Assembly: GCA_030739585.1 (NCBI GenBank)
Contig: JASLYX010000003.1
Location: forward strand, 147,633-211,632
Length of the DNA stretch: 64,000 nt
Direction: 5' to 3'
Source of the DNA: Candidatus Bathyarchaeota archaeon
Lineage (GTDB): Archaea; Thermoproteota; Bathyarchaeia; TCS64
The position numbers were made by a program, and so were the translations under genes. Below the pieces are notes generated by a model. It searched no databases. It was not told the DNA's origin and saw only the letters and a program-made list of their open reading frames with translations. Shown one piece after another: positions 10,911-32,032 of the stretch. How positions within the stretch are numbered: the stretch's first letter is position 1; every line of letters begins with the position of its first letter.

Positions 10911-11660
10911 TTGATCAAAATGCACGTTATAGCGACAGAAGTTAATCCGATTAATACTAAGCAAGGAGTTGAAATCAGGACACTACTTAAACACGAAAAT
11001 AGTCAGTCAGGAGTCTTGAGTGTATCCCACATAACTCTTCAGCCAGGCAGTGAAATAGTATTCAATGATCCCATGACAGAGTATATGCACTACGTTATAC
11101 AGGGGTGCATAGGCTTTGGAGGGCTTAGTGGAGATCTGCTACCTAGTAACACAGCCATCTTTATACCATGCACCAAAACTGGCACTGAACCATATATAGC
11201 AAAGCACACAATCGCCCAGACGGGTGAGGCTGAAACTAGGTTATTGACCGTTGCCTGCAAGGTTTCCAAGCCAGCATTCAGCTGGTCCCGAAGGCTCGAT
11301 CGGAACCTATACCATATACCCCAATACCATTCCGGAAAACAGATCACAGGTCAGACAAAAGTGTTGAACGAGCAAGAACTCATAGGTCTAGGCGCCTCAA
11401 GGATTCATTGTGTAAAAGTCCAATCTCAAGCAACCGGAACCGAAATTCCACCTTACTGTGGTCCAGAGCGGATAATGTATCAACTTAGTAGCACAGGGGA
11501 GCTGGACTCCGATGGGGATAAAGTGAGGACTCGTCCTGGGTCCTTTATTTATACACCTGAGGGAGAGATGCACAGCGTTAATAACACACATGAAAAATTC
11601 CCTATGCAATACGTACTGGTAGAGTTTGTTGATCACGAACAAGTCCGGAGGGGTGAGTAA
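10911..11660 (+). CDS. bicupin-family protein, paralogue 1 of 5
   Basis: Two cupin-like halves joined by a conserved linker xKPAFSWSRRLDRNLYHIPQYH. C-terminal half has PEG..H..N. Clearly homologous to the ORFs at 11626, 27267, 30452 and 31226. Confidence 0.55.
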   Translation: MIKMHVIATEVNPINTKQGVEIRTLLKHENSQSGVLSVSHITLQPGSEIVFNDPMTEYMHYVIQGCIGFGGLSGDLLPSNTAIFIPCTKTGTEPYIAKHTIAQTGEAETRLLTVACKVSKPAFSWSRRLDRNLYHIPQYHSGKQITGQTKVLNEQELIGLGASRIHCVKVQSQATGTEIPPYCGPERIMYQLSSTGELDSDGDKVRTRPGSFIYTPEGEMHSVNNTHEKFPMQYVLVEFVDHEQVRRGE

Positions 11661-11661
11661 T

Positions 11662-12468
11662 ATGCATATAAATATCGAAGATGTTGAACCAGTTGAGATA
11701 AGTGATGGAGTCTTTGAACGGGTGCTAATGAAGCCTGAGGACAGCCGGCCAGGGGGCCTTGGCGCCAGACACTATGTTGTAAAAGAGGATTCTACAGTCA
11801 CCTTCGAGGAACCCTTAACAGAGTTTCAGCACTACATTATTTCAGGCGTCGGTTTCTATGGGGCCAACCTCGTTCACGGGGATACGACCATTTTCGCGCC
11901 AGCAGGAACACATGGCCCCACAAGCCAGCGGAAAGGCTTGAGGAGGCACAGCATCGCCAATGTAGGTGAAGGGGAACTACGGATGTTCACAATAGCCTAC
12001 AAAGTTCCAAGACCCGCTTTCAGATGGGCCAAGTCCCGAGTAAGAAATCTACATCAAGTACCTACTCCTCACCAAACAAGGTACGGATATACACAGATAA
12101 TAACAGAGGAAGAACACGCCATTATGGGAGCTCTGAAGATGCATGCAATTGACATACAGACACATCCGGGAGGATATGGCAGAGGAAAAATAGATCCAAA
12201 AACAGGGAAAAAGATCGGAGGCAGGAATCCCGAGGAGATACTGTACTGTCTTAGAGGTCTCGGAGAGTTCATGGGAGGCTTAGAAGGCGGTGAGGTAAGC
12301 ACTGCAAAGCCGGGATCGTTTGGTTATGTCACAGAGGGAGCCCTCCATGGAATATGGCACTCAACTAGCGATGTTCTCCAATATGTATGCATGGAGTTTA
12401 TAGAACACGACAAGAGCTGGACAGAAAGAGGCTATCAAGGCGAAGTAAGCCCCGCAGATTGGAAGTAA
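11662..12468 (+). CDS. bicupin-family protein, paralogue 2 (tandem with 10911)
   Basis: Start placed at MHINIEDV to match the paralogues' MHVNINDV. The ORF track extends to 11626. Shares the motifs PRPAFRWAKSRVRNLHQVP, TEEEHAIMGALKMHAIDIQTHP, NPEEILYCLRG.GE and KPGSFGYVTEGALHG. Confidence 0.6.
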   Translation: MHINIEDVEPVEISDGVFERVLMKPEDSRPGGLGARHYVVKEDSTVTFEEPLTEFQHYIISGVGFYGANLVHGDTTIFAPAGTHGPTSQRKGLRRHSIANVGEGELRMFTIAYKVPRPAFRWAKSRVRNLHQVPTPHQTRYGYTQIITEEEHAIMGALKMHAIDIQTHPGGYGRGKIDPKTGKKIGGRNPEEILYCLRGLGEFMGGLEGGEVSTAKPGSFGYVTEGALHGIWHSTSDVLQYVCMEFIEHDKSWTERGYQGEVSPADWK

Positions 12469-12480
12469 AAAAACACAATC

Positions 12481-12510
12481 TCTATTTTTTTTCTTATTTT
12501 TTTACGAGGG
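12481..12510 (+). terminator. oligo-T tract (archaeal-type terminator) after bicupin pair
   Basis: ttttttttcttatttttttacg immediately 3' of the stop at 12468. Confidence 0.3.
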
Positions 12511-12636
12511 ATCAATTCTAACAAAAACATATCTGGAGTCAGATAAATTACGCATGTTTTACTTTCCTCCGAATAAAATCAACAAATTATATAAGGAGCA
12601 TAATTATTCCTGAAAATATTACAAGCCTTAAGCGAG

Positions 12637-14565
12637 TTAAATCTGATAGGCCACAAATGTGGCCTCGTGGATAGCCTCAAGAATTCGACTAGGTCTGACA
12701 CAGTCACCTATTTTATACAGTTCGTTAACCTGACCCTCCAAGCTATCGTATAACTCATCACAAGAACGAGAGCCTACGGCTATCACAACAGTGCCCGCTT
12801 TGAAAACATGCTTTTTCGAGTTTGCCCCAGTCGCTTCCAAGCTGTCAGATGATATCTTGTTGACCTTCATTGAGGTGAAAACCCTAACCCCCATCTCTTG
12901 AAACCTTTCAAGCAGGAAAACTTTGCTGAAAGGCTCCATGTCTATCCCGACATCAGAGAGCATCTCTATTACAGCTACGGTCTTACCCTTCTCTGCAAGG
13001 TATTCAGCAGTCTCTAGTCCTACCATTCCTCCGCCCACGACGAACACATTATCTTTTGCTTTGAATTCACCGGCCAAGACCTCCCAAGCACTGACCACGT
13101 TAGGACCATCTACTCCAGGAATTCTGGGGATAATCTGTACGGACCCAGTTGCAACTACAACTGCATCTGGTGTTTCATTTTGAACTAGTTCCCTTGTAAC
13201 CTCTTTCCTGAGGACAATATTTACACCTGATTTGGCAGCTTGATTCACTAGATAATCAGTATAATAATTGATTTCTTCTTTTAGGGGTGGTGTGCCTGCC
13301 AGTATAAGCTGTCCACCTAGCATTCCCTGCTTTTCGTAAAGAGTTACATCGTGACCTCTTTGCGCTGCAACAGTCGCAGCAGTCATACCAGCAGGACCGC
13401 CTCCTATTACAAGTACTCGTTTCTGTTGTTTAGCCAGGGATAAAGGATAATTTTGAATTCGACCCAAATTCGGGTTAACTGTGCAATGTACCCGTATGTT
13501 TCTAGAAGTAGCCATCTCGCAACGGAGGCATGCGAAACAAGGCGTAATATCGTCAAATTTCCCCCTTCTCGCCTTAATCGGGAGCTCCGGGTCAGCAAAA
13601 AGCGCTCTCCCCATGGCGACTAGGTCTGCCTTTCCCTCCACTAATATTTGCTCAGCCAATCTGGGATCGTTTATCCTACCGACAGCGATAACGGGAATAT
13701 CGACAGTCTCCTTAATACCCTGAGCAAGATGGACATAAGCCGCCCTAGGGATGCACATAGGGGGCATTGCCTTATGATAGGACTCTACGATGCCCATGGT
13801 GACATCTATGCAAGATACGCCTGCGTCTGCTAGGTTTTTTGCGATGAACTTGTTGTCCTCAAGGGTGAGCCCCCCCTCTATGAATTCATCCCCGCTTATC
13901 CGCACCATTTGAGGGAAATCTTTACCTACTTTTTCCCTAGTCCTCTCGATGATTTCTAAGAGAAAGGTCAATCTCTTCTGAGGGGTCCCCCCATATGCAT
14001 CGGTCCGCTTGTTGACGAAAGGAGAGAGAAATTGGGAGATCAGATACCCACTAGCACCATGGTATTCTATTGCGTCGAAGCCGGCCTCTTTAGCTCTGAA
14101 CGATGCTTTGGCGAAGGCTTCAACCAAATAGTCTATTTCGTCCAAAGTTAGAGCTCTTGCGGTTGTCCCGTATGGCGCGCAGAATGCCTTTGAAGGCGCT
14201 ATTGGTACTTCGCCTACAGCTTCCGATGAAGAGATTGCTCTTCCTCCAAGGCTTAGCTGAATCGCTATCTTAGCCTTATGGATATGGACCGCTTCAACGA
14301 TGTCGTTAAGGCCACGTATATGCTCGTCAGTATCTATCCTCAGACGACCCGTCTTTTTTTCAAACGTAGTATCCACAAGGACCCAAGGGACTATAAGCAG
14401 GCCAGTTCCACCCTGTGCCCTGGTGAAATAATGATTAATGTGATAGCTGGTCGCTTCGCCTGAGACACTAGCGAAGCGGGTTCCCATAGGAGGCATCACT
14501 ATCCTGTTTTTTACCTCCATAGTCCCTATTCGAATTGGTTCAAATAGTCGAGTAAGAGCGGTCAT
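12637..14565 (-). CDS. Old-Yellow-Enzyme / 2,4-dienoyl-CoA reductase-like FMN+FAD+[4Fe-4S] oxidoreductase
   Basis: 642 aa. N-terminal OYE TIM-barrel (…NRIVMPPMGT…HGASGYLISQFLSP…), central CFACLRCE…C Fe-S motif, C-terminal Rossmann GGGPAGM. Confidence 0.8.
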   Translation of the reverse strand: MTALTRLFEPIRIGTMEVKNRIVMPPMGTRFASVSGEATSYHINHYFTRAQGGTGLLIVPWVLVDTTFEKKTGRLRIDTDEHIRGLNDIVEAVHIHKAKIAIQLSLGGRAISSSEAVGEVPIAPSKAFCAPYGTTARALTLDEIDYLVEAFAKASFRAKEAGFDAIEYHGASGYLISQFLSPFVNKRTDAYGGTPQKRLTFLLEIIERTREKVGKDFPQMVRISGDEFIEGGLTLEDNKFIAKNLADAGVSCIDVTMGIVESYHKAMPPMCIPRAAYVHLAQGIKETVDIPVIAVGRINDPRLAEQILVEGKADLVAMGRALFADPELPIKARRGKFDDITPCFACLRCEMATSRNIRVHCTVNPNLGRIQNYPLSLAKQQKRVLVIGGGPAGMTAATVAAQRGHDVTLYEKQGMLGGQLILAGTPPLKEEINYYTDYLVNQAAKSGVNIVLRKEVTRELVQNETPDAVVVATGSVQIIPRIPGVDGPNVVSAWEVLAGEFKAKDNVFVVGGGMVGLETAEYLAEKGKTVAVIEMLSDVGIDMEPFSKVFLLERFQEMGVRVFTSMKVNKISSDSLEATGANSKKHVFKAGTVVIAVGSRSCDELYDSLEGQVNELYKIGDCVRPSRILEAIHEATFVAYQI

Positions 14566-14706
14566 GCTTTCAATACCTCACAGGGAGCTATTTTAAAATT
14601 TTCCGACAGCCTCTTATTTGAAATAAATGCGAGTCATTGATTGAAACAAAAGAAATAAAAAGGAAGAGAACCCTGCAAGAAGGTCCTCTTTAAGTTTCAA
14701 ATATCA

Positions 14707-15888
14707 TTAGAGGTTGTAGGCCGCTATATAGGGAGCCCGCCAGTTTATGTACCAACCAAGGGTCTTGCATCCGGTGTCAGTTACTATGACGGTATCCTTA
14801 GAACGCCAGATCTCTCCATCTGGGCCGGATATAACTGGGTCTAGGACCAAAATCATTCCTGGCTTCAACTCTGTGTCATCGGTAGCGGTAAGATAGGGTG
14901 GCTCGTGGGATGTTACTCCTATTCCGTGGCCAACTCCAAGACCGTTTAGTAGCTTGATACCATCGTTTCCCGCCTTCTCTAATACAGAGTTATAGACCTT
15001 ACTGCATTTCACCCCAGGTTTGATAGTATCCATCGCCTTTTTCCTTAGCGATATTAGATCATTGAAAGTTTTGCTCTGCTCTGCGGTTGGTTCACCATTG
15101 ATCACCGTTCTAGTCGCATCAGACCAATAACCATCATAAGAGCTAACCATACCCAAACGCACAAGCTCCCCATTCTGTAACACCTTCTCCCAGCCAATCG
15201 CATATCGATCAACTAAGGGCCACATTTTTTTCGCGCTTATGCCAGATGCAGCTTGGGCCATAGAGTGATGTCCAACAGTATCGAGGCCTCGCTCCATGCA
15301 GTGAACCCTGGTGTCCTCTGCCAATGCCATCTCGGTCTTGGGATGTGTAACAATGATGTGATGAGCGGAACCGACGATTCCGTGGTCAGTCCGATAAGCT
15401 ACATCCTCAAGGAGCTCCGCTTCTTCGGATGTCTTGGTCATCCTGAGTGTTTTTATCCAATCACTGCAATCCACAATCTCTAGTCCAGAGAGAGCATTCT
15501 CAATATTATTGAATAGAGCGTTGGACACCCGATTCAGGTCAAGTCCGATCTTTCCCCCGTTATCAACTAACCCTTTGAGCTCCTCGGCTAGGGTTTTACT
15601 AGCGGGTTTAATGCTATCCTCTCCCTCCGTGTAGGGTGAGACTTTCTCAAGCCAACTCATGTTGCGAAGTGTCGATTCCCACTCAACGGGGCATATACAG
15701 ATTCTAATCCCATTTTTTGGCCATATTACTATCACGGGTCGGTCAGGGTAGCTATAGAGGAAAGGCATTGAGGCGCCACTAAGATATAGAACGTTATCCG
15801 AACCTACAGCTACTATTGCGTCATATTCAGAATTTTCTATTGCATTACAAACCTTTTCTTTTATACCGAGTTTCTTCATTTTTTTCAT
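14707..15888 (-). CDS. M24 family pita-bread hydrolase (creatinase/prolidase/ectoine-hydrolase-like)
   Basis: C-terminal domain has HGIGVTSHEPPYL, DTGC and other metal-ligand motifs. N-terminal creatinase-type domain. Confidence 0.8.
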   Translation of the reverse strand: MKKMKKLGIKEKVCNAIENSEYDAIVAVGSDNVLYLSGASMPFLYSYPDRPVIVIWPKNGIRICICPVEWESTLRNMSWLEKVSPYTEGEDSIKPASKTLAEELKGLVDNGGKIGLDLNRVSNALFNNIENALSGLEIVDCSDWIKTLRMTKTSEEAELLEDVAYRTDHGIVGSAHHIIVTHPKTEMALAEDTRVHCMERGLDTVGHHSMAQAASGISAKKMWPLVDRYAIGWEKVLQNGELVRLGMVSSYDGYWSDATRTVINGEPTAEQSKTFNDLISLRKKAMDTIKPGVKCSKVYNSVLEKAGNDGIKLLNGLGVGHGIGVTSHEPPYLTATDDTELKPGMILVLDPVISGPDGEIWRSKDTVIVTDTGCKTLGWYINWRAPYIAAYNL

Positions 15889-15891
15889 CTC

Positions 15892-17049
15892 CTAATGTGT
15901 CGACCTGAATCCTATCACAGAATATAGCTTGTCCCATGTCTTATACCAGCTAAGAAGAGTTGGAGAACTCTCCGTGATTTTGTAGATATCTTTAGAGTGG
16001 ATTAGCTCTTTTTCTGGACCATAAGTATAAACATCAAGTGCTATGACCATACCAGGTCTAAGGACGGTTTCATCCAAGGAGTTCAAGAAGGGGGCTTCTC
16101 TGTGGCTGACACCAACGCCATGACCAATCCCAGCCTCCTCAAAGAACGGTATCCCAAGCTCATAGGCTTTCTTTTTCACCTCGGCGAAAGCTTCGTTGCA
16201 TTTGGTGCCAGACTTGAGAGTCGCGAGGGCCACAGATTTTATCCTGAGGTTGTTCTCAAAAGCAGCTGACTGCTCATGAGTCGGATTTCCGATCACAGCC
16301 ATACGACCTGCATTTGACCAGTATCCTTTGAGGTGATTTGTTATATCTATCCGGGCAAGGTCCCCCTCCTTAATCCATCCTCTCTGAGCAGTGTAAAACA
16401 TCTGGGCAGCAGCTCCCACCTGAGTTGCCATGTGCTCTACGCCAGTGCCTCCGAATTCAAAGACATGAACTCTCACTCTCTCCGTAAACTCATTGATAGT
16501 ATATCCAGGGACAGCGACGGTCCCCTCTAAATGCATTAAAGCAGTGATGATTCCCAGCTCAGATTGATATGCTGCAGACTCGATTAATTTCACCTCCTGG
16601 GGAGTTTTTAATAAGCGAAGATCTCTGAGCACACTATCAAAAGGTATCCATTCAACATCAGAGATAATCTGTTTTAAATTATCTATAAATTGTTTTGATG
16701 CTCGGGTTTCGTCAATCCCGATTTTAGCTTTTTCAAGACCGAGTCGCGCCATTAGGACCTTGATTGTCCCGATGAGTGCCTTTGGGGGTAGGTCTTTGTT
16801 TTCGTCATAAGCTACCAGCTCCCCATTCCAGCCTTGGTCTCTTACTGCTTCCTCCCAGTCAATGGGACATGCAATACCACCTAGTCCCTCCTTGGTATGA
16901 AGCACTACAGCCTGCCTGTCCGGGTAATTGGAAGCAAAGGGGAGGATTAGATGACTCACATAGGTGAAGTTATCCACACCTATTACCAATAATGCATCCA
17001 GATCCTCGGTTGCTATGGCAGTATTAATTTTCTTATCGATCTCAATCAT
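15892..17049 (-). CDS. M24 family pita-bread hydrolase, tandem paralogue
   Basis: GHGVGVSHREAPFL motif. 4-nt spacing from the upstream paralogue suggests co-transcription. Confidence 0.8.
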   Translation of the reverse strand: MIEIDKKINTAIATEDLDALLVIGVDNFTYVSHLILPFASNYPDRQAVVLHTKEGLGGIACPIDWEEAVRDQGWNGELVAYDENKDLPPKALIGTIKVLMARLGLEKAKIGIDETRASKQFIDNLKQIISDVEWIPFDSVLRDLRLLKTPQEVKLIESAAYQSELGIITALMHLEGTVAVPGYTINEFTERVRVHVFEFGGTGVEHMATQVGAAAQMFYTAQRGWIKEGDLARIDITNHLKGYWSNAGRMAVIGNPTHEQSAAFENNLRIKSVALATLKSGTKCNEAFAEVKKKAYELGIPFFEEAGIGHGVGVSHREAPFLNSLDETVLRPGMVIALDVYTYGPEKELIHSKDIYKITESSPTLLSWYKTWDKLYSVIGFRSTH

Positions 17050-17147
17050 TTATTCATTCTTCCTTCCTGTTTTACGGAGATTACCATTCCAAATACGATA
17101 TGCGGAATTAAACGTTTTCGAGAGTGAACCGGTGTTCTTAAATAAAC

Positions 17148-18185
17148 TTGGATATCGCTTTCCTTATTATGTCAGGAGACAGTTTTAACCCTTTAGAAGT
17201 CAAAAAGGGAGAAAAAAAATTCGGATACGTGCCTATTGTAGATACGGTAGCAGCGAAGTTTGATATGCCCGTGGGCGTCGTTAATGGTGTTAATGATGGT
17301 CCCACCCTCGCAGTGACCGGAGGACTGTATCCCACTGAGTACTGTGGCGTCGAGGCAGCCTCCAGATTATACCAGCTCTTGGACCCCGAGAAACTATCGG
17401 GGCGGTTTATCACCATCCCCGTGATGAACATGAACGCGCTCCAGTTCCGAGTACCCGGACTAAACCTAACATCCTCCTCCACGACCCCCGTCGACAGGGG
17501 GAGAATAAACAGCTCATTCCCAGGGGACCCCGAGGGGAGACCCACCCAGATTCTCGCCCACAAGACGTTCAATATCCTCTCTAAAGCGAATTACCACGTC
17601 GACTTCAGGGGAGGAGACCTGAACGAGTCCCATCTCGTTCACACTATCGTGCTGAGGGCCGGAAAAGACACCGATGAGACAGGTGAAACCATGGCGAAAG
17701 TCGTCGGATACGAGTATGTGCTACCCAGCACCCCGGAGATAGGACACACGAGACCCGGCACGATGGTCTACGAACTGAACAACGCCGGTGTTGCCTCCAT
17801 CATCACCGAGAGCGGCCTTGGATACAGAGAGCAACCTCTCGAGGAGTTTGTCGAGTTGCACATCAGTGGCACATTGAACCTCTTGAAGCACTTCGGCATG
17901 AGCGAGGGTGAACCGACGAAGCCCAAGAATCAGAGATACCTGAACAGCAAATGGAATAGGGCGCCTGCCCCGGTTTCAGGCATCTGGACCGCCACCGCCG
18001 ACTATGGAGACATCTTCGAGAAAGGGGACGTTCTCGGCAGGATCACCGACCTCGACGGCTCCACGCTGGCAGAAGTGAACGCTCCGATCAGCGGTATCGT
18101 TCACACCATGTTCCCGAAGCGGGTAGTCCACAAGAACGACCCGCTGTTCCTGCTCCTTGAGATCGAGGGCAAAACAGGGTACTAG
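17148..18185 (+). CDS. AstE/AspA-family (succinylglutamate desuccinylase/aspartoacylase-like) deacylase paralogue; first Zn-ligand His replaced (YPTE)
   Basis: Family resemblance to 22259 and 23365 (…NGVNDGPTLAVTGG…E..GVEA…). The HxxE zinc motif reads LYPTE here. Confidence 0.6.
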   Translation: MDIAFLIMSGDSFNPLEVKKGEKKFGYVPIVDTVAAKFDMPVGVVNGVNDGPTLAVTGGLYPTEYCGVEAASRLYQLLDPEKLSGRFITIPVMNMNALQFRVPGLNLTSSSTTPVDRGRINSSFPGDPEGRPTQILAHKTFNILSKANYHVDFRGGDLNESHLVHTIVLRAGKDTDETGETMAKVVGYEYVLPSTPEIGHTRPGTMVYELNNAGVASIITESGLGYREQPLEEFVELHISGTLNLLKHFGMSEGEPTKPKNQRYLNSKWNRAPAPVSGIWTATADYGDIFEKGDVLGRITDLDGSTLAEVNAPISGIVHTMFPKRVVHKNDPLFLLLEIEGKTGY

Positions 18186-18359
18186 CAAGAGAGATTTTCC
18201 GAGGGACATTCATTCCCTCACTTTTTCTACTTATTTTGGTTCCATTTATTTTTTGTACCAAAGCAATTTTGTTTATAATGATCTATCCAAAAGTAAATTT
18301 GAATTCCATTTTTTAAATGAAAAAATAGTTATATAGGACAAATCTAATCTTTTTGGAAT

Positions 18360-19235
18360 ATGACAAAGTATCTTTTAGCAGATATGACTTCTGCCGAAGC
18401 TGCGAAGATAGTGAAAGAAAGGAAGATCGTTGTTGTGCCGGTGGGGGCGATACATAAGCATGGCGATGGTCCACTTGGAACAGATATGTTCTCCTGTACA
18501 GAGCTCGCTAGAAGGCTTGGCGAGGCAATTCCAGATAAAGTGATAGTTGTCCCGACACTCCCCTACGGAGTATCAGGCAGCGCTACTCTACCTGGGACTA
18601 TAAAAACTTCACAAGAACCTGTAAGGCAAATAATCAAGGAGATCTCGATGTCATTCGTCAAATTCGGTATCAAACACTTCTTATTTCTCACCGGCCACGG
18701 TGGGAATGACGGTGCATACCTGAGCGTAGCAAGAGAGCTCAATAAATTGGGAGTGTTATGTGCCTACGTCAGGTGGTGGGATCTTATGATCCAGCTGGAG
18801 GGGGACAAGAATCCAAACTTTAGAAACGTCAACCTCTTGGAACAAAGCGTTGACGCTGCATGCGGTAAAAATGACCCCTCGGTCTTGAGAGACGGCGAAG
18901 GCAGAACAGGGGCTTTCCAGCAACGTCTCCGAAAAGACGTGCTTAACGATAAGTTCAGTTCACCCGTGAAAATTGATGGGACCCTTATTTGTGCGGGCTC
19001 TGATCCCAAACTCACGAGTGTCCCTCATGGAGTGGTATACAATAAGGGGACAATTCAGATGCCGCTCCCTAGAGCAAAGGTGGATATAGATGATCCTGAG
19101 CCAGGCGAATGGGTGAGCATCTCCGACAAAGTTAGTGCAGAACAAGGCGATTACATACTGAACACTTGCAGAGACTGGCTTGTTGAGTTCTTAGCAGACT
19201 TTGAAACCCTCGAGATCCCGGAAAAATACCTATAA
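18360..19235 (+). CDS. creatininase-family cyclic amidohydrolase
   Basis: VVVPVGAIHKHGDGPLGTD… and LFLTGHGGN motifs are characteristic of the creatinine amidohydrolase fold. Confidence 0.75.
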   Translation: MTKYLLADMTSAEAAKIVKERKIVVVPVGAIHKHGDGPLGTDMFSCTELARRLGEAIPDKVIVVPTLPYGVSGSATLPGTIKTSQEPVRQIIKEISMSFVKFGIKHFLFLTGHGGNDGAYLSVARELNKLGVLCAYVRWWDLMIQLEGDKNPNFRNVNLLEQSVDAACGKNDPSVLRDGEGRTGAFQQRLRKDVLNDKFSSPVKIDGTLICAGSDPKLTSVPHGVVYNKGTIQMPLPRAKVDIDDPEPGEWVSISDKVSAEQGDYILNTCRDWLVEFLADFETLEIPEKYL

Positions 19236-19254
19236 AAAACAAATACCAGTAACC

Positions 19255-19290
19255 CTTTTTTTTCTTTTTACCATTTTTTCTTTGAACTCC
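19255..19290 (+). terminator. oligo-T tract after creatininase gene
   Basis: cccttttttttctttttaccattttttcttt. Confidence 0.3.
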
Positions 19291-19378
19291 ATTATTTGTA
19301 TCTATATGTTGAGGTAGATATCATATTTTCACTTTCTGAAAACGCTTAATACTAATCAACAATACTCTGAAGATTACT

Positions 19379-20545: not shown

Positions 20546-20701
20546 GATATTCGTCTCCCGTGTGTTCAACATTGCACATATCTTCAATGCATTTGTTTGT
20601 TTAATAATCACTTAAATCAAAGAGATTCAACGCACTAAATAGAAAAATAAGATACCCTCAATCGGGGGGTACATTGTATCAAATGAAGCTGCTGAAAAAA
20701 A

Positions 20702-22219: not shown

Positions 22220-22258
22220 CTGGAACTCCCCCCTTTTTTCATTAGGGCTTGCTTATGT

Positions 22259-23272
22259 TTATGGGGGGGAGATGGAGATCAGACGTCCCCCCTCCTCTAT
22301 TGGACCATAGGTTCTGATGAAAATAACTAGCCCATCTATTGGTGCTTTGATCTCTTCAATCCCTTTTGGTATAGAGTGGACCTCGGCGAGCAACTGTCCC
22401 TTTTTGACAGAATCTCCGTTATCTACAACAGGATTGAATATTCCGCCGTTGACCGTTCTAACCGTTTTGGTGCCATCCTCTAAAGGATCCACTACAATCC
22501 TCTCTCCTTGATCAACGATCTCTCCGTCCAACATTTCCATGGCTTTCATCACGTTGAGGACTCCGGTAATGAAATATTCCACGTATTCGTCTTCAGGTAA
22601 GCCAGAGCCGCCTTGTCCTGCTTCGGGATAGATTCCAGCTCTACCCTCCCTCACGGCGACAAAAGGCATTGCCAATTGGACAGGCCATCCATAGTCCTCC
22701 TCATTATCTCCTTGGATGATGCGGTCTCCCCCAAAGGCAATTGATAGTTCAAGTGATCGTTTTCCTGCTCCGTTCCCAATTTCAGGGGGGGTATAGGCCA
22801 TGGGGTTATTAGACCCGCCCCGGCCTGCAGTATGCATATCGATTACACAGTCAGCCTCTGAGGCCAGCGTATTCAAGATATACTTCATTCTCTTGGAATA
22901 GGACCCTGTGGGTGATCCTGGGTGGACCCAATCGGGATCGATGGGGTCGTAGGGATTGGACCTTGATCTGAACACGTATCCTGCGGGATTCTGAACAGGT
23001 ACGAGGATTAGTTCACCTTTCACATCATTAAAGTCGATTTGGTCTTGCAGCCTTAGGATAGCCTCGACTCCATTAATCTCGTCGCCATGAATTCCACCGC
23101 CGACATATAACTTAGGGCCGGCTTGTTTTCCTATGATCCGAATGACATCAATATCCACCTCTACTCCACTTTTCATCTTTGTAGAAAAAGGAGGTACGGT
23201 ATTATGGGTGCCAACAGGTGGGATAGTATGTTTCTCGTAATATTTTCCGGGCTTTAAATTTTTGGAGTTCAT
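22259..23272 (-). CDS. AstE/AspA-family zinc deacylase
   Basis: GGGIHGDEINGVEA (HxxE Zn motif) and DMHTAGRG second His. Confidence 0.7.
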   Translation of the reverse strand: MNSKNLKPGKYYEKHTIPPVGTHNTVPPFSTKMKSGVEVDIDVIRIIGKQAGPKLYVGGGIHGDEINGVEAILRLQDQIDFNDVKGELILVPVQNPAGYVFRSRSNPYDPIDPDWVHPGSPTGSYSKRMKYILNTLASEADCVIDMHTAGRGGSNNPMAYTPPEIGNGAGKRSLELSIAFGGDRIIQGDNEEDYGWPVQLAMPFVAVREGRAGIYPEAGQGGSGLPEDEYVEYFITGVLNVMKAMEMLDGEIVDQGERIVVDPLEDGTKTVRTVNGGIFNPVVDNGDSVKKGQLLAEVHSIPKGIEEIKAPIDGLVIFIRTYGPIEEGGRLISISPP

Positions 23273-23364
23273 CGTTAATTAAATAATATAATTGCTTTTA
23301 AAAATAACTATGTCTAGATCAAATATAGTTAGACACAATTAAAAAAAGAAAGAAGATTTTGGGG

Positions 23365-24357
23365 TCACTCTATCTCTCGAATATCTTTACCTATCTCGTA
23401 GGTCACATCGCCTTCCCAAACTGCAGGTGAGGTGATCATATGGATGACACCGTCTGTTGGTACCACAATTTCTTCCAAGATCTTGCCATTCAGGTTCCGA
23501 ATCTCCCCTAGAACGTCCCCCTTTGTAACCAAGTCACCCCCCTTAACGTTTGAGATAAAGAATCCGCCATGTTCTGCGTACATATGATAGGGATTAAAGA
23601 CATTAGCCTTTTTTGGAATTTCCGGCTTTCCATCCATCATGTTTAGATGTTTGAGAGTATTTTGACAGCCTTTGACGACCATCTCTACTATATCTGATGT
23701 GCAGCGACCCATTCCTCCCGCTTCAGTTCCCACGGTCATTGGCATATATCGCCTCTTTCTCGGAGGCGATCCTGGGCGAGGCTTCCTGATCCCTTCCCTG
23801 ATCCACTTCCAGCCGAAGTTTCTGGCCATCGCCAGGTTCTCGTCATCTCTTTGTTGGTCTCCGTATCTACCGTACATGACACCGGTCAGCACGTCTTCCT
23901 CGAGATCTCCTCCGTGGAGGTTTAGTCTAAACTGGCTCTGGGCCAAGACCTCTTTATAGAAGGTCATTGCTAGCTGGTAGCTGTGCTTAGGGACTCCAGA
24001 TCCTCCTCTTGGGATTTTGTCAACATAACACCCACCTATATCCCGATAATCTATGGGGTTCCCATGCATCCACCGTGACTCGAATGCGAGCGTGTTCACC
24101 ACGGGTACAAGGATTATTTTTCCATTAATGTTGTCAGGATTTATATCCTCAATCAGCTTGAGACACCCAGCAGGGCCATTGTATTCTGATCCATGCTCAC
24201 CACCGTTTATACACAGAGTGGGGCCGTCCCCAGCCCCATTCACTAGAGTAATTGGAACTTGATGTTTATACGCGGGCCGTTCGTGAATGTACAAATCGCC
24301 CTGTACTTTTGTTCCCTTAGACGCTTCAAGATTCTGAACTTTTAGAGTGTCAGACAT
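23365..24357 (-). CDS. AstE/AspA-family zinc deacylase
   Basis: NGGEHGSEYNGPAG and NLHGGDLEED motifs. Paralogue of 22259. Confidence 0.7.
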   Translation of the reverse strand: MSDTLKVQNLEASKGTKVQGDLYIHERPAYKHQVPITLVNGAGDGPTLCINGGEHGSEYNGPAGCLKLIEDINPDNINGKIILVPVVNTLAFESRWMHGNPIDYRDIGGCYVDKIPRGGSGVPKHSYQLAMTFYKEVLAQSQFRLNLHGGDLEEDVLTGVMYGRYGDQQRDDENLAMARNFGWKWIREGIRKPRPGSPPRKRRYMPMTVGTEAGGMGRCTSDIVEMVVKGCQNTLKHLNMMDGKPEIPKKANVFNPYHMYAEHGGFFISNVKGGDLVTKGDVLGEIRNLNGKILEEIVVPTDGVIHMITSPAVWEGDVTYEIGKDIREIE

Positions 24358-24512
24358 ATCTCAATCAGTTGAAAGTTTCACATATCGAAATATAAACCAT
24401 GTCTTGTTTTATCCCAAGGTATTACGTCGAAAGGGACACCAGTCTGATGTAGAATAGGTAGCTATTCCCGTAAGATATTAAAATTGGATGTCGGCTTCAT
24501 TGATCCCACGGA

Positions 24513-25670: not shown

Positions 25671-25976
25671 GAATATATAAGCATGAGAATAGTCCTCCCT
25701 ATATTCTGTTTAAGATTTCATTTTGAAAATAGTTTGTAGCTAGATTATATCTAACATTAAAGCGTGTTAAAAATAGTCTTGTAACGTTCGCGAAGATTTT
25801 GATAAATAATTCAAAATAGGGGTTTAGAGGTTGACTCCGAATTTAGGCACTCACGTGCTCACGATTAACATCTTGAACGGGTTGAATGGAGTTCCAAAGT
25901 CCCATTTTCGGGTTAAATACATAACGCCCCTTAGGTCAATAAAGCGTTATTCGTAAAACAAAAAATTAACCCTATC

Positions 25977-27221
25977 TTATGTATTAATCCATTTTCTCAG
26001 CTCATATCTCCGGGCCCAAGCCCTTACTTGACCTGACTCGAGAAAATGGTTAGTCCCAACATGAGGACCCATGTATGGCTCGATATTGCCGTTAGGGAAC
26101 ACCCAGATGACCGACCGTTTCTTAAGCTCGGCAATAGCCTTTTCAGACTCTGCTTTTGTTATGTGCTTATCCAAAAGCTCATCGATCATCCATGTCCCTG
26201 GTCGTGGCTCACGTTCAAGAATCTTTTCGAAGAGGATGTAAGCTAAAGGCGTGAACACATGACTGACGGAATGGGCTAGAACTGTTCCGATAATTCTCCT
26301 CAAAAGTGGGGAGAACTCAGGCTCAGGTAAGTTAACAGGATCAACAATTACCTGTTCTAAAAATGTCCTTAGATCAACTCCTTCTTGAAGCAGGGCTGGA
26401 ATTGAGTTCCAGTTTACCTTCTCAGGATCATTTTGCTTATAATGCATCAGAATCTTTACGAGGTCAAAACCACCGATGATTAAAAGGCTACAAAAGAGAT
26501 GGTTGGGTCTCCGGAATAATCTGGCTGGATTAGCAACATAATCCGCGAACTCCTGACGATATAACATGTTACGTCTAAAACCGAGATCTCCTCGACTTTC
26601 TCCGTAGATTATAAAGGCCATGAGGTTGCACAACCCCTCATCGAACCAAGGTACGAAGTTGGGAAAAGCTTGGATAGCAGGGTGAGCAAGTTCGTGAACT
26701 AGTAGAATCTCACTTTCTGGTACCAATGATGCTTCACCAATGTAGATCCCCTCGGGCATACCATATCGATCGGCCTGCCAACGGTCGGCCCCAAAGCCTC
26801 CCCCTTTTCGCCCGGGGGTAGGATCCCAAGGCAAAGAAGTTACGATGTTAATGGGGGGCGGTTCGTACTCTACCTCAAGCTTCTTCCGGAGATTAGGGAC
26901 GATTGTATCTTTTGCATAAGCCTCAAGCCTGCTCTTAATATCCCCAAAGTCTACCGAGTTTTGAGAGAGAAAGTCAACCACAGAGAAAATGTCCCGGCTT
27001 AGTAGGAGCAGGAACGCATACTCTTGATCTTTTTTCTGTTCTAGCTCATTAAGTATTTCTTGTCGAACCTGCTTCAGGGTTTGTAAAGTATCAAGGGTAT
27101 AATCCTTCTCAGACAGGCAGCCCCTAGAAACGATCTCCTCATATGGATATTGTTTTGGGTAAAGAGTTGTTTGAACACGACTCAGAGCATATCTTACCGC
27201 TCCTCTCTCATCTAACTTCAT
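25977..27221 (-). CDS. HExxH zinc-metallopeptidase-like protein (MA-clan-like)
   Basis: LLVHELAHPAI…WFDEG: HExxH with a downstream Glu. No further family assignment possible. Confidence 0.4.
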   Translation of the reverse strand: MKLDERGAVRYALSRVQTTLYPKQYPYEEIVSRGCLSEKDYTLDTLQTLKQVRQEILNELEQKKDQEYAFLLLLSRDIFSVVDFLSQNSVDFGDIKSRLEAYAKDTIVPNLRKKLEVEYEPPPINIVTSLPWDPTPGRKGGGFGADRWQADRYGMPEGIYIGEASLVPESEILLVHELAHPAIQAFPNFVPWFDEGLCNLMAFIIYGESRGDLGFRRNMLYRQEFADYVANPARLFRRPNHLFCSLLIIGGFDLVKILMHYKQNDPEKVNWNSIPALLQEGVDLRTFLEQVIVDPVNLPEPEFSPLLRRIIGTVLAHSVSHVFTPLAYILFEKILEREPRPGTWMIDELLDKHITKAESEKAIAELKKRSVIWVFPNGNIEPYMGPHVGTNHFLESGQVRAWARRYELRKWINT

Positions 27222-27386
27222 ATAATCTCACTATTGGTTTGTAATCTCAACTAGAAAATAACGTTTTTGAGTCTTTTTTGGTTAAACAAAAGGCTTGCAT
27301 CCGAACGCACAAGTAAAAGCTATTGGGCTAATGGCTACTATAATAAATTTCAAATACAAGAACAGAGTCGATTACTTCGATTCAAC

Positions 27387-28091
27387 ATGGGATATACAGC
27401 GAATATTGATGATGTCAAACCCGAAGAAATATCTCCGGGAGTACTAAAGAGAACACTTCTCACTTCCAAAAATACAGGACGCGGTCCCCCTGGAGATTTA
27501 ACTGCTACTCACTATACACTCACAAACGGGGGGACCTTGACTCTTGATGACCCCAACGTCGAATACCAGGATTATATCATCTGTGGTACAGCTCGCAGTG
27601 GCAAGGGATACATCCATGCGAACACAACTATGTTTGTCCCCTCCGGTAAGAAGCATACATTTACACATGCTGGAGAATCAGACCTTCGGATTTTATCGCA
27701 TTCCTACTCAGTCCCACACCCAAGCCATAAATGGTGTAAAACTAGAACAGCCCAACTAACTTTTCCCAATGGACAACAGCAACTTATGACCGAGGAGTTC
27801 CATGGCCTCGTTGGAGCCCACAGATTCCATGCCTTAGACGTGCAAGATTATGATGTCTCTGAACATACAAATCCTGAAGAAACCGCCTATTTCATGGCTG
27901 GTTCAGGTACAATGGGTTCTGGAGACGACGTATTTGAGTTCAAACCTGGTACTCTTGTTTACGTAGAAGAGGGCGACCTTCACTGGATTAAGCGTGATCA
28001 AAACTCATTGGTTCCACTCCACTATTTCGTGATGGAGTACACTGAACAAGACAAAATGTGGAGTTCGAGGGGTTTCCAAGGAAGCCTCTAG
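27387..28091 (+). CDS. bicupin-family protein, paralogue 3
   Basis: Start placed at MGYTANIDDV by analogy to the paralogues. The ORF track starts at 27267. Most divergent copy (PHPSHKWCKTRTAQL linker). Confidence 0.5.
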   Translation: MGYTANIDDVKPEEISPGVLKRTLLTSKNTGRGPPGDLTATHYTLTNGGTLTLDDPNVEYQDYIICGTARSGKGYIHANTTMFVPSGKKHTFTHAGESDLRILSHSYSVPHPSHKWCKTRTAQLTFPNGQQQLMTEEFHGLVGAHRFHALDVQDYDVSEHTNPEETAYFMAGSGTMGSGDDVFEFKPGTLVYVEEGDLHWIKRDQNSLVPLHYFVMEYTEQDKMWSSRGFQGSL

Positions 28092-28285
28092 TGCCATAAC
28101 ATGACAAATCATCTAAAATTGATTCCAATCCCCCCTTTTTTCCATTTTATTTATAAAATTATATTTAACGAATATCCGCGAATTGTTAAATAAAAAAGTA
28201 AAATAGCTTTTTTGAGGAGGATTCTTGGAGGGTATACCCTCCATTATTTCCCGAGCGTCCTGTTGATTTAATATTTAAATCGGTT

Positions 28286-30235: not shown

Positions 30236-30451
30236 TCTCTTCTAGCTGTTTGAACTATGTTCTATATGTTGATATTGTTATTAGATAATTTTTTTAATTG
30301 AGTTAAATGGGAGACAACAGTAATTCAAGAGAGTTCTCCTAATTAAAAAGGATGGATGTAGGGATATTAAGAGGGACTATAAATATGTTGAAGATAACCG
30401 AGGGTAAAAAGTTTTATATGTTGATTTAAATTAAATTAAATAGAAATTAAA

Positions 30452-31222
30452 ATGCATGTGAATATTAATGATGTTTCTGGAACGGAGATAAGTTCAGGAA
30501 CCATTGAAAGGATTCTCCTGAAAAGCAATGTGACCGCCTCAGGGGATCTCACAGTGAAACACTATGTGATGACTGAAGGGGGACAGATAGCATACGACGA
30601 GCCATTAACGGAATATCAACATTATACCATCCAAGGAGTCGTTGCGCGAGGAGGTCCAAATGGAGACCTCGTACATGGTGACAGTGCGATATTCGTCCCT
30701 TGTAGTGACCGTTTCCCTTCTGAAGGCACCACACCAAATGCCCGTCATATTCTTGCTCATAGTGGAGAGGGTAAAGTCCGGGTGTTGACTCTGGCTCATA
30801 AGATTCCCCAGCCTAATTTCAGATGGGCGAAAGGCAGAATTAAAAACCTCTTCCAAGTCCCACAGTATCACTCAAGTCGGCAGATGGTGGGTTATACTCA
30901 GATCTTTACTGAAGAAGAGCATGCTATCATGGGAGCGTTAAGAATGCATGGTATTGACATCCAGACAAACCCTCCGGGATACAAGCTACCCGACCATAAA
31001 AACCCCGAGGAGATCCTTTACGTCCTGAGGGGGGAGGGAGAAGTTACCTCAGGAGATAACACTTACAAAGTTTCGCCGGGTTCCCTGAGCTACACACCAG
31101 AAGGAGAGGTTCATAGTATAACAAATACTCATAAGAGCTTACCTCTTCAATATCTTGCAGTAGAATTTGTTAATCAAGAAAAGATGTGGGCTGCACGTGC
31201 AGGCATGTCAATGGAGAAATAG
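30452..31222 (+). CDS. bicupin-family protein, paralogue 4
   Basis: MHVNINDV…PQPNFRWAKGRIKNLFQVPQYH…TEEEHAIMGALRMHGIDIQTNP…NPEEILYVLRGEGE…SPGSLSYTPEGEVHSITN. Confidence 0.6.
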   Translation: MHVNINDVSGTEISSGTIERILLKSNVTASGDLTVKHYVMTEGGQIAYDEPLTEYQHYTIQGVVARGGPNGDLVHGDSAIFVPCSDRFPSEGTTPNARHILAHSGEGKVRVLTLAHKIPQPNFRWAKGRIKNLFQVPQYHSSRQMVGYTQIFTEEEHAIMGALRMHGIDIQTNPPGYKLPDHKNPEEILYVLRGEGEVTSGDNTYKVSPGSLSYTPEGEVHSITNTHKSLPLQYLAVEFVNQEKMWAARAGMSMEK

Positions 31223-31225
31223 AAA

Positions 31226-32032
31226 ATGCATGTAAATAGTTCAGATATCGAAGGCAAGGAAATCGCACCTGGGGTTGTTGAACGAGTTCTTGTTAGACCT
31301 GACCAATCCGTGCCCCCAGGGTTCAGCGCGAGACACTACGTGTTAACCAATGGCGGGCGTGTAGTTTTCAACGAATCTATGACTGAATTTCAACACTACA
31401 TCATCTCAGGCTGTGTTGTGGGCGCTCACGGAGATACTGCAATATTTATGCCGGCGGGAAACCACAACAAGGCTCAACAGATCCAGGGAAAGAGTATCCA
31501 TGGATTCAAACATGCTGGTGAGGGCGAGGCACGAATTATATCCTTAAGTCATAAGGTCCCGAGACCTGCCTTTAGATGGGCCAAATCTAGGAAAAGGAAC
31601 TTGTTCCAGATTCCAAGTCCCCACGCAGAAAGATGGGGGGCCACACAGATATTCACGGAAGAAGAACATGCTATCATGGGTGCCTTACGGATGCATGGCA
31701 TCGATGTACAAACACACCCAGCAGGATATCACCACCGTGAGCACAGAAACCCGGAAGGACGCCTCCATGAGGTACTTTACTTCCTGCGAGGGACTGGCGA
31801 GGCAATAGCGGATGGGGTCACATACAAAGTTCGCCCAGGATCATTCTGCTATTCCGGAATGAGAAGGGGTAAAAGAGGCGGGGTCCATGGCATCTATAAT
31901 CCTACTGACGACATCATCGAATATTTCGTTATGGAGATCACAGAACAAGACAAATCATGGACAGGTCGAGGGTTCGTTGGAGAGTCTCTAACGGGCGGAT
32001 ATATCTTCGATGCAGGTATCCCTGAAGAATAA
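31226..32032 (+). CDS. bicupin-family protein, paralogue 5 (tandem with 30452, 3-nt spacer)
   Basis: Same motifs as paralogue 4. PRPAFRWAKSRKRNLFQIPSPH linker. Confidence 0.6.
   Translation: MHVNSSDIEGKEIAPGVVERVLVRPDQSVPPGFSARHYVLTNGGRVVFNESMTEFQHYIISGCVVGAHGDTAIFMPAGNHNKAQQIQGKSIHGFKHAGEGEARIISLSHKVPRPAFRWAKSRKRNLFQIPSPHAERWGATQIFTEEEHAIMGALRMHGIDVQTHPAGYHHREHRNPEGRLHEVLYFLRGTGEAIADGVTYKVRPGSFCYSGMRRGKRGGVHGIYNPTDDIIEYFVMEITEQDKSWTGRGFVGESLTGGYIFDAGIPEE

Follow-up and report, generated by a model that had tools for sequence, protein, structure and literature searches.

A Bathyarchaeia bicupin family with paired A and B genes: a possible two-subunit metal enzyme encoded near AstE/AspA-type deacylases

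The abundant, uncultured archaea called Bathyarchaeia are believed to feed on recalcitrant organic matter, detrital protein included, and generic annotations underlie much of what is inferred about their catabolism. The window considered here, i.e. the whole 64-kb stretch of DNA that was analysed, contains five related cupin genes, arranged as two tandem pairs and a singleton. The window proteins are named 'hypothetical protein' of Candidatus Bathyarchaeota by NCBI, and distant relatives of the five bear generic names only ('mannose-6-phosphate isomerase-like', 'quercetin dioxygenase-like'). What these genes encode, and why they come in pairs, is the question raised by the locus. A conserved, lineage-restricted family linked to deacylases, peptidases and peptide transporters would point to a reaction beyond current annotation.

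Searches with a family HMM and tblastn found exactly five full-length paralogues and no fragments in the window, all on the forward strand and where the earlier note had placed them; a weak tblastn match at 46198-46347 (E 0.003) was considered as a sixth copy and taken as chance. The relationship of the five is clear, as had been claimed: pairwise BLASTP gives 27-51% identity (E 1e-28 to 1e-89), the N-terminal halves compared alone give E 1e-15 to 1e-39, and the full-length alignment displays the shared motifs and 33 invariant columns. The linker described as invariant is less uniform, since it diverges in copies 1 and 3 and only P121 and W125 of its motif are identical in all five. The start of copy 1, previously set at the TTG at 10911, most likely lies at the ATG at 10920, in keeping with the family N-terminus MHVNI.DV. 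The ATG starts of copies 2 and 3 (11662 and 27387) are kept as before; ORF calling puts earlier TTG starts on both (11626 and 27267). The five genes form three separate transcription units, namely pair, singleton and pair (Table 1).

Table 1. Bicupin genes of the window and the neighbouring features discussed in the text
Feature	Position	Strand	Remark
Bicupin copy 1, subtype A* (divergent A)	10920..11660	+	246 aa from ATG; first gene of pair 1
Shine-Dalgarno-like GGAGGGGTGA	11647..11656	+	Read by eye; lies inside the 3' end of copy 1, with the copy 2 ATG 5 nt downstream
Bicupin copy 2, subtype B	11662..12468	+	268 aa; second gene of pair 1
Context block	12637..17049	-	OYE/FadH-type flavoenzyme and two M24/creatinase_N genes
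OYE/FadH-type flavoenzyme	12637-14565	-	
M24/creatinase_N genes, two	14707-15888 and 15892-17049	-	
AstE/AspA-family deacylase-like gene (a)	17148..18185	+	Pfam AstE_AspA_cat
AstE/AspA-family gene (b)	22259..23272	-	
AstE/AspA-family gene (c)	23365..24357	-	
Bicupin copy 3, subtype S (singleton)	27387..28091	+	234 aa from ATG
Bicupin copy 4, subtype A	30452..31222	+	256 aa; first gene of pair 2; protein used for the structure model
Bicupin copy 5, subtype B	31226..32032	+	268 aa; second gene of pair 2

The bicupin fold proposed earlier for the five genes is borne out by the AlphaFold2 model of copy 4, a compact bicupin (pLDDT 93, pTM 0.90) in which two tandem double-stranded beta-helix barrels are predicted in one chain. 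Profile-profile comparison detects no similarity between the N and C halves. No family covering the full protein was found in Pfam, NCBIfam or the PDB; the C-terminal barrel alone scores, as generic Cupin_2, a model that hits every one of the five copies and passes its cut-off in three (48.9 bits in copy 4). This barrel matches the sequences of generic single-barrel Cupin_2 proteins (TM1287, 1o4t; Thermococcus phosphomannose isomerase, 7zvy) at E ~1e-5 and over both cupin motifs. These proteins, however, have one barrel, with no counterpart of the N barrel, the conserved linker or the EEEHA.MGA segment. Compared with the cupin consensus (G-x5-H-x-H-x3,4-E-x6-G and G-x5-P-x-G-x2-H-x3-N), motif 1 of the C barrel is altered (G176-x5-H182-x-N184-x2-E187-x6-G194) and motif 2 is exact (G210-x5-P216-x-G218-x2-H221-x3-N225), whereas the N barrel has no canonical motif. 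Among 1.84 billion representatives the whole family amounts to only 15 clusters at E<1e-30, and its genome matches are archaeal MAGs in eight cases out of eight (six labelled Bathyarchaeia, one 'Thaumarchaeota' and one 'uncultured archaeon'), so that it appears essentially confined to Bathyarchaeia.

The earlier note could name no cupin family for these proteins, and the models searched agree, those of EctC, oxalate decarboxylase, ureidoglycine aminohydrolase (see below), pirin and DMSP lyase all lying far below their cut-offs. EctC (NCBIfam PRK13290) reaches 14 bits in two copies against a cut-off of 128, and the cupin DMSP lyase model PF16867 14.4 bits in one copy only (Pfam gathering cut-off 27); oxalate decarboxylase TIGR03404 matches none of the five copies, and the pirin model stays far below its cut-off. 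Cupin_1 matches a single copy, in its C-terminal half, and for the fold match to oxalate decarboxylase/oxidase the TM-score on the target is lower (0.45-0.5). Literature searches found nothing relevant on bicupins or succinylglutamate desuccinylase in Bathyarchaeia, or on clusters of cupin and aspartoacylase genes.

The pairs themselves follow a rule. In each tandem pair of the window an A-type gene precedes a B-type gene, and the B clade, which is monophyletic (95% bootstrap), contains one member of every A/B pair. Same-type identity across the pairs is 51% for B-B and 41% for A-A, against 34% within pair 1 and 45% within pair 2. Another Bathyarchaeia contig, L009, holds one-to-one orthologues of four of the five copies (65-84% identity) in the same A+B pairing: copy 1 groups with the gene at 17587-18381 (100% bootstrap, 65% identity), copy 2 corresponds to 16779-17594 (84%), copy 4 to 9989-10759 (67%) and copy 5, a member of the B clade, to 11586-12407 (78%). 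Copy 3 clusters with genes of L020 (2279), L068 (342) and L039 (83). The tree implies three or more duplications in which the A+B pair was copied whole. The copies thus read as old paralogues of distinct subtypes (A, B and S), of which the A+B pair is what multiplied, without local expansion. The earlier proposal that a five-member expansion implies substrate diversification is, as worded, not supported by this picture of old subtypes with paired orthologues in L009; diversification between A/B pairs is possible.

Across the family, 14-15 complete A/B pairs occur in 11 non-redundant contig groups, with four more whose partner is lost at a contig end, and up to six bicupin copies are found per locus. 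Among contigs showing both flanks, none has an A or B gene with family-free flanks on both sides. Irregular arrangements are a B-A-B triple in L020, two adjacent B genes beside the contig end in L068, and the L009 orthologues of pair 2, which are separated by 827 nt. The paired genes are otherwise close: 1 nt separates the copy 1 stop from the copy 2 ATG, 3 nt separate the copy 4 stop from the copy 5 ATG (with GGAG at 31213-31216), and elsewhere the spacing is a 10-nt overlap (L007) or 1 and 18 nt (L009). Shine-Dalgarno-like motifs lie upstream of the second gene in A/B pairs, and the one read by eye before copy 2 suggests that its translation is coupled to that of copy 1.

Such strict pairing leads to a testable two-subunit hypothesis, and multiplication of the pair is easier to reconcile with several isoforms of a two-subunit protein than with five isoenzymes acting independently. 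A and B would be co-translated and then assembled as a hetero-oligomer acting as a divalent-metal-dependent enzyme, and the genome would carry two A/B isoforms of it plus one stand-alone S-type protein. The reaction would probably be non-oxidative (C-N hydrolysis, ring opening or isomerisation) and its substrate a small carboxylate of peptide or modified amino-acid origin. The analysis shows paralogy, a predicted bicupin fold, the A/B pairing rule, residue conservation and neighbour enrichment; we infer the heteromer from gene arrangement, and metal binding, type of chemistry and substrate class likewise. Taken as a whole, this reading is tentatively preferred, with slightly less than an even chance of being right. 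If true, the fold, so far known mainly from homomeric enzymes, would gain a heteromeric type; a literature search found no description of a heteromeric or heterodimeric bicupin enzyme.

Conservation, computed across 116 sequences, bears on both the metal site and the pairing. About 45 polar positions, eight of them histidines, stay near-invariant between subtypes that share no more than 30-50% identity. Strict invariance among polar residues is limited to H37 and E54, both in the N barrel, where Q56, H57, Y58, H99 and E106 are near-invariant. The C barrel likely holds a 2-His-1-Glu metal site, residues being assigned to the pocket from motif register alone. In the linker, a basic stretch is conserved (R124, W125, K127 and R129), which suggests an anionic substrate.

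Departures from this set are unevenly distributed. Copy 1 has lost the family-conserved Q56, R124, R129, Q150, H157, D169, H182 and N184; it and its L009 orthologue lack at least eight such residues, yet the two still share 65% identity and each stays paired with an intact B gene. Copy 2, like its orthologues, has Gly in place of H182, which is thus absent from both members of pair 1, so that the C-barrel site cannot be a universal active site. In copy 3, H57D is found and the loop residue G176 is missing, whereas copies 4 and 5 retain almost the entire set. Decay on the other side is seen in one B sub-lineage without H99, E186 and Y190, the A partner of which retains all three. One-sided decay of this kind, as far as sequences can tell, is typical of a non-catalytic partner subunit.

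These data also bear on the notion that the copies are independent homomeric isoenzymes with their own substrate preferences, adjacent through co-regulation or because the steps they catalyse are parallel or successive. In favour of this notion, compact bicupins of solved structure are homomeric or monomeric, and subtypes T, C and D occur as single genes, implying that the bicupin fold can function without a paralogous partner; copy 3 also stands alone, and nearly full residue sets are found in both copies 4 and 5. However, wherever the flanks can be seen A and B occur together, duplication copied the pair whole, its genes appear to be translationally coupled, and in two lineages one partner has a degenerate residue set. 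Independent isoenzymes are hence considered unlikely, although they keep an appreciable share of the probability. Far less credit is given to non-catalytic bicupins, e.g. small-molecule-binding or storage-like proteins, a very improbable reading despite the many bicupins (seed globulins, pirin-like proteins) that are not classical enzymes: the near-invariant polar positions speak against it, as do the catabolic enzymes around the genes and the absence of Pfam DNA-binding or signalling domains from the five proteins.

Of all neighbour families, AstE/AspA alone is conserved throughout the bicupin family. A gene of this type lies within 5 kb in 16 of the 34 non-redundant loci of at least 8 kb, and the family accounts for 7.9% of genes within 5 kb versus 2.8% beyond. 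Other neighbours are Opp ATPase (10 of the 34 loci), M24 (7), amidohydrolases (7-8) and 2-hydroxyacid dehydrogenase (7). In the window, AstE/AspA gene (a) is 59% identical to a gene of L009, and orthologues of gene (c) adjoin bicupins in L009, L016 and L017 (58-62% identity). The OYE/FadH and M24 block recurs near a T-type bicupin in L016 (64%, 50% and 50% identity) and, according to gene-cluster labels, in L085 and L089. Synteny with M24, AstE/AspA and creatininase genes, a point raised by the earlier note, is therefore found elsewhere, mostly for AstE/AspA and less often for the other two; its statement that each copy sits next to hydrolases holds only in part, as neither the nitroreductase nor the OYE-type reductase is a hydrolase. 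The bicupin units of the window face away from or towards their neighbours, with no shared operon and no co-transcription with a hydrolase.

This wider setting suggests peptide and amino-acid catabolism. None of the neighbouring enzymes reaches the NCBIfam cut-off for a characterised enzyme, which makes the substrate class a guess from context. The A/B enzyme would work in concert with AstE/AspA-type deacylases, with enzymes of the M24 and amidohydrolase types and with peptide uptake of the Opp/Dpp type. A more specific version, doubtful though it deserves mention, is an obligate A/B heteromer, one subunit of which is able to decay to a non-catalytic partner, catalysing an undescribed Bathyarchaeia-specific step that, together with AstE/AspA-type deacylases, degrades N-acylated, cyclic or D-residue-containing amino-acid derivatives.

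In context only, the M24/creatinase_N genes adjoining an AstE/AspA gene resemble DoeA+DoeB (EutD/EutE) of ectoine hydrolysis and deacetylation. DoeB is the sole NCBIfam model matched by the AstE/AspA copies, and the best match of gene (a), at 78.6 bits against a cut-off of 402.7. An ectoine or hydroxyectoine (Doe/Eut) pathway was suggested by the M24, AstE/AspA, OCD and PLP-enzyme genes of L016, and was rejected: the PLP enzyme, at first taken as EutB-like, is TrpB-like, the OCD-family protein falls below the EutC cut-off, and the DoeA/DoeB scores are far too low (78-91 versus 403; 25-91 versus 575-613). No cupin is known to belong to the Doe/Eut pathway.

The closest folds to the copy 4 model are ureidoglycine aminohydrolase and BacB/AerE. 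In analogy with the former, the bicupins would release ammonia by hydrolysis of an unstable alpha-amino or ureido intermediate formed by ring-opening amidohydrolases, in the catabolism of ureides, purines or other N-heterocycles. The ureidoglycine aminohydrolase group (AllE/YlbA, 1rc6; Arabidopsis UGlyAH, 4e2q; DR1152, 1sfn; EF2996, 1sef) has a similar compact bicupin fold, at 11-15% identity. However, TIGR03214 (AllE) gives 16.3 and 18.6 bits in two copies, against a cut-off of 200, and no match in the others, and hhalign with E. coli AllE reaches 23% probability over 44 columns with the wrong barrels aligned. The C-barrel Mn motif of AllE (E-x-H-x3-H...Q), whose residues correspond to the metal ligands of the Arabidopsis structure, is absent; the family has H182-x-N184-x2-E187...H221 instead. 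UGlyAH is a homomer and allE a single gene in E. coli, whereas the Bathyarchaeia genes come as A+B pairs. No allantoate amidohydrolase or allantoin-pathway clustering was found in the window or among the recurrent annotated neighbour clusters of 64 locus groups. Only T-type relatives adjoin an allantoinase/dihydroorotase-like gene; this allantoinase-scoring gene also passes the dihydroorotase model and adjoins an ATCase-scoring gene, so that it may simply be pyrC beside pyrB. A role in allantoin or carbamoyl-phosphate metabolism may exist at the T-type loci; for the family, ureidoglycine-type chemistry has a slim chance.

Somewhat less slim, yet still improbable, is a likeness to BacB/AerE (3h7j, 5zbf), isomerases of bacilysin and aeruginosin biosynthesis, according to which the bicupins would isomerise or tautomerise metal-bound 2-oxo acids (arylpyruvates or similar) supplied by neighbouring aminotransferases in amino-acid fermentation. 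BacB is a monomer whose two barrels have identical H-x-H-x3-Q...H metal sites (PMC2797259). In the Bathyarchaeia family, by contrast, the N barrel lacks HxH and the cupin motif is confined to the C barrel in altered form, with N for the second His and E for Q (H-x-N-x2-E...H). There is no sequence-level match, the genes are paired, and their context is catabolic and not biosynthetic, with a deacylase, not a transaminase, as the most consistent neighbour.

That the family consists of O2-dependent cupin dioxygenases (quercetinase, gentisate or 3-hydroxyanthranilate type) with aromatic substrates has a similarly slender chance. No dioxygenase model scores with the five bicupins, and genes of ring-cleavage pathways are absent from the conserved neighbours of the family. 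Most relatives lie on metagenome contigs whose names suggest sediment or peat, and the window encodes two tungsten-type aldehyde:ferredoxin oxidoreductases together with ferredoxins, proteins typical of anaerobes.

Five paralogous bicupin genes, all on the + strand, are found in the window, as the earlier note had read from the sequence, and their relationship is borne out by the ORF listing, full-length alignment, BLASTP and a family HMM. The copies align over their whole length, 33 columns being invariant, pairwise BLASTP identities range from 27 to 51% (E 1e-28 to 1e-89), and the N-terminal 118 residues taken alone are matched at E 1e-15 to 1e-39. The family HMM detects exactly these five genes in the window, and tblastn revealed no further copies, fragments or pseudogenes there; one extra match outside them (E 0.003) was taken as chance. 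GC content of the bicupin region (0.42-0.49) does not differ markedly from its surroundings. Family members begin with MHVNI.DV, which makes ATG 10920 the most likely start of copy 1 in place of TTG 10911 as first proposed; the ATG starts proposed for copies 2 and 3 fit.

Bicupin genes of the window, with their one-to-one orthologues in L009, a sediment contig carrying six copies
Gene	Type	ORF	Start	Strand	Basis	L009 orthologue	Identity
Copy 1 (pair 1)	A*	10911-11660	ATG 10920 (likelier)	+	ORF listing, family N-terminus	17587-18381	65%
Copy 2 (pair 1)	B	11626/11662-12468	ATG 11662	+	ORF listing, family N-terminus	16779-17594	84%
Copy 3 (singleton)	S	27267/27387-28091	ATG 27387	+	ORF listing, family N-terminus		
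Copy 4 (pair 2)	A	30452-31222		+	ORF listing	9989-10759	67%
Copy 5 (pair 2)	B	31226-32032		+	ORF listing	11586-12407	78%

The label 'bicupin' is right. Pfam assigns Cupin_2 only, on the C-terminal half (48.9, 30.8, 28.5, 23.6 and 18.5 bits for the five copies; cut-off 27.2), and nothing on the N-terminal half, and an AlphaFold2 model of copy 4, computed from an alignment of 62 sequences, displays two beta-barrels and a C-terminal helix (pLDDT 93, pTM 0.90). The N barrel is recognisable only from this predicted fold. Profile comparison detects no similarity between the N and C halves; the family profile, run against PDB sequences, retrieves single-barrel cupins only, via the C half (E ~1e-5), and the N half alone matches nothing. 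The earlier note could not match the genes to a named cupin family, and curated models agree: those for EctC, oxalate decarboxylase, pirin and DMSP-lyase all score far below cut-off, and nothing in NCBIfam comes near one, the top model being ureidoglycine aminohydrolase (UGlyAH; 16-18 bits versus 200). No description of the family was found in the literature. A word-indexed search returned 61 clusters, all metagenomic and with generic automatic names only; when 1.84 billion representatives were searched exhaustively with the HMM, 15 proteins passed E<1e-30 and 74 passed E<1e-10, with many fragments among the hits; and 185,579 species genomes yielded only 8 family loci, all in archaeal MAGs (labelled Bathyarchaeia in six cases, 'Thaumarchaeota' and 'uncultured archaeon' in one each). 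The window's bicupins are recorded as 'hypothetical protein' or 'cupin domain-containing protein' from Candidatus Bathyarchaeota MAGs, with sources including Tara Oceans, and informative names are absent from more distant full-length relatives too. The family is new and lineage-restricted inside the well-known cupin superfamily, and no curated family explains the five genes.

Related loci (97, reduced to 64 non-redundant groups with 116 distinct full-length sequences) fall by distance trees into eight subtypes, named A, A*, B, S, C, D, E and T. In the B clade (95% bootstrap) are copies 2 and 5 and, from each of the other A/B pairs, one gene; the genes paired with them make up the A group (53% support), with copy 1 and its long-branched A* lineage inside it. 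Between the two window pairs the B genes are 51% and the A genes 41% identical, versus 34% within pair 1 and 45% within pair 2; since four window copies have one-to-one orthologues in L009 and same-type identity across pairs exceeds that within pair 1, the A+B pair is old and was duplicated as a unit. Complete A/B pairs number 14-15 in 11 non-redundant groups, in both orders (B>A and A>B), and four further cases have lost the partner to a contig end; the arrangement table holds no A or B gene with family-free flanks on both sides. This conserved A+B pairing, absent from the earlier note, is unusual. C>D pairs occur in 8 groups, C and D being also found alone; T-type genes are single in every case; S-type genes are also single, and share a contig with A/B genes in three groups (the window, L020 and L068) and adjoin a D-type gene in a fourth (L039). 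Copy number reaches six in L009/L022, L009 packing three A/B pairs into 13 kb, and five in L020 (S, a B-A-B triple flanked by peptide-transporter genes, and one further B). Paired genes are separated by 1 and 3 nt in the window and by 1 and 18 nt in L009, and overlap by 10 nt in L007. By eye, GGAGGGGTGA and GGAG lie upstream of the second genes of the window pairs, genes 1, 3 and 4 have AT-rich TATA-like boxes ~30-45 nt on their 5' side, and genes 2, 3 and 5 have oligo-T runs on their 3' side; on this reading the window has three transcription units, one for each pair and one for the singleton between them.

In all subtypes, some 45 positions occupied by polar residues or glycine hardly vary. 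The C barrel has motif 2 in exact cupin form (G210-x5-P216-x-G218-x2-H221-x3-N225) and motif 1 in altered form (G176-x5-H182-x-N184-x2-E187-x6-G194), which suggests a putative 2-His-1-Glu site. The N barrel has no cupin motif and contains H37 and E54, the sole polar residues of the family that never vary, besides conserved Q56, H57, Y58, H99, H103, E106 and R110; R124, W125, K127, R129 and N132 are conserved in the linker, and E154, E155, H157, R164, H166, D169 and Q171 ahead of the C barrel. From the motif register we infer which of these residues would belong to pockets. To call the linker invariant was an overstatement, as copies 1 and 3 diverge there and the five copies all agree at just two residues of its motif, P121 and W125. 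Losses in copy 1 and its orthologue comprise Q56, R124, R129, Q150, H157, D169, H182 and N184, H182 being the only loss in their B partners; in another pair lineage, B has lost H99, E186 and Y190 and has N132 replaced by H, its A partner retaining all. Such losses exclude the C-barrel site as the universal active site. The decay is lineage-specific and one-sided, as would be expected when, in a complex of paralogues, one subunit loses the site it had. Gene order, coupling, phylogeny and one-sided decay make an A+B heteromer, on balance, somewhat probable; the main rival, the earlier note's independent homomeric isoenzymes with diversified substrates, seems rather unlikely.

The neighbours in the window are those listed earlier: alanine racemase, DUF362, an OYE/FadH-type flavoenzyme, two M24/creatinase_N, three AstE/AspA, a creatininase-family gene, a class I/II aminotransferase, a TRZ/ATZ-type amidohydrolase, a class III CoA-transferase, a 414-aa HExxH protein, an S9 peptidase, a nitroreductase, an ATP-grasp gene and a third M24 gene. 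Ten neighbours compared with NCBIfam reach the cut-off of no characterised enzyme, and the aminotransferase, ATP-grasp and S9 genes likewise fall under it. Synteny of homologues with AstE/AspA and M24 genes, which the earlier note had suggested checking, is recovered in a census of families within 5 kb of a bicupin gene at the 34 non-redundant loci that span 8 kb or more: AstE/AspA (16/34), Opp/Dpp ATPase (10), SDR (9), Amidohydro_1 (Xaa-Pro-dipeptidase-like; 8), M24, Amidohydro_2 and D-2-hydroxyacid dehydrogenase (7 each), GFO/IDH/MocA (6), nitroreductase and SBP_bac_5 (5 each), Aminotran_3 and Aminotran_1_2 (4 each). AstE/AspA genes make up 30/381 genes within 5 kb (7.9%) versus 4/143 beyond and adjoin A/B, C/D, D and T types alike; an AstE/AspA-type deacylase is the only family-wide neighbour link. 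The window's OYE-M24-M24 block recurs beside T-type genes (L016, L085, L089). What these neighbourhoods have in common is uptake of peptides and acylated amino acids and their hydrolysis, then transamination and reduction. The archaeal alanine racemase (7310-8494) is bona fide (TIGR00492, 385 bits versus a cut-off of 168), two other contig groups (L007 7775-8980; L038) have such a gene just 5' of an A/B pair, and Asp/Glu racemase and M55 D-aminopeptidase are present at other family loci, which hints at use of D-amino acids.

We propose, as a possibility somewhat short of even, that A and B would assemble into a heteromeric, divalent-metal-dependent enzyme that would act on a small anionic metabolite containing nitrogen, converting it non-oxidatively (by C-N hydrolysis, ring opening or isomerisation) in a pathway shared with AstE/AspA-type deacylases; the window would encode two A/B isoforms, with one S-type protein standing alone. 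The proposed type of chemistry and of substrate, drawn from fold neighbours and context, is doubtful. UGlyAH is the closest fold, and UGlyAH-like deamination is a rival chemistry; membership of that family was rejected on model score, profile comparison (E. coli AllE: 23% probability over 44 columns, with the wrong barrels aligned) and ligand motif, the AllE pattern E-x-H-x3-H...Q being unmatched, and no allantoate amidohydrolase gene was identified near family genes. BacB-like 2-oxo-acid isomerisation is another; BacB is a monomer with H-x-H-x3-Q...H sites in both barrels (PMC2797259), whereas the present family has the motif, altered, in one barrel only. O2-dependent dioxygenation, a further rival, is made less likely in that the window has two aldehyde:ferredoxin oxidoreductase (AOR)-like genes and ferredoxins, and conserved ring-cleavage partner genes are absent. 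The AOR-like ORFs (610 and 619 aa from translations, followed by a 4Fe-4S ferredoxin-like gene; 38660-43275) are 33% identical to a Pfam-annotated AFOR gene of L007, and these genes suggest an anaerobic, amino-acid-fermenting host.

The gene of the 414-aa protein (25977-27221; HELAH motif, no Pfam match) and copy 3 are divergently transcribed. A 130-aa ORF without Pfam match (10392-10784) lies directly upstream of pair 1; in another Bathyarchaeia MAG, a homologue sharing 50% identity with it (L015 8221-8613) is 1.4 kb away from a C-type bicupin. Two M24/creatinase_N genes stand back to back with an AstE/AspA gene (14707-18185), a pairing recalling the ectoine hydrolase/deacetylase DoeA/DoeB, with scores far under curated cut-offs. 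T-type loci (L016, L072, L085, L089) carry a conserved block in divergent orientation to the bicupin, in the order allantoinase- and dihydroorotase-passing gene, ATCase-scoring gene, then M24 genes (L016, L085, L089), with OYE-type and F420/luciferase-like oxidoreductase genes nearby in L085 and L089; this block may represent either pyrC-pyrB or a carbamoyl route of catabolism. A few kb from T-type genes there is repeatedly a second, distant bicupin that shares about 29% identity with the family and scores 83-113 bits with its HMM (L016 15884-16585, L081 9943-10662, L085 12530-13243); it adjoins a DHDPS-family gene in L081/L089 and L085. In the window, a 114-aa single-barrel cupin with a histidine-rich NHSHHHEQ stretch (61827-62171), just upstream of a 499-aa ORF (62209-63708), is unrelated to the five copies, as the family HMM fails to detect it. 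At 60001-62000, GC falls to 0.29 (0.40-0.54 elsewhere) around unannotated ORFs (60101-60535, 61109-61774), and this segment may be foreign or otherwise unusual DNA.
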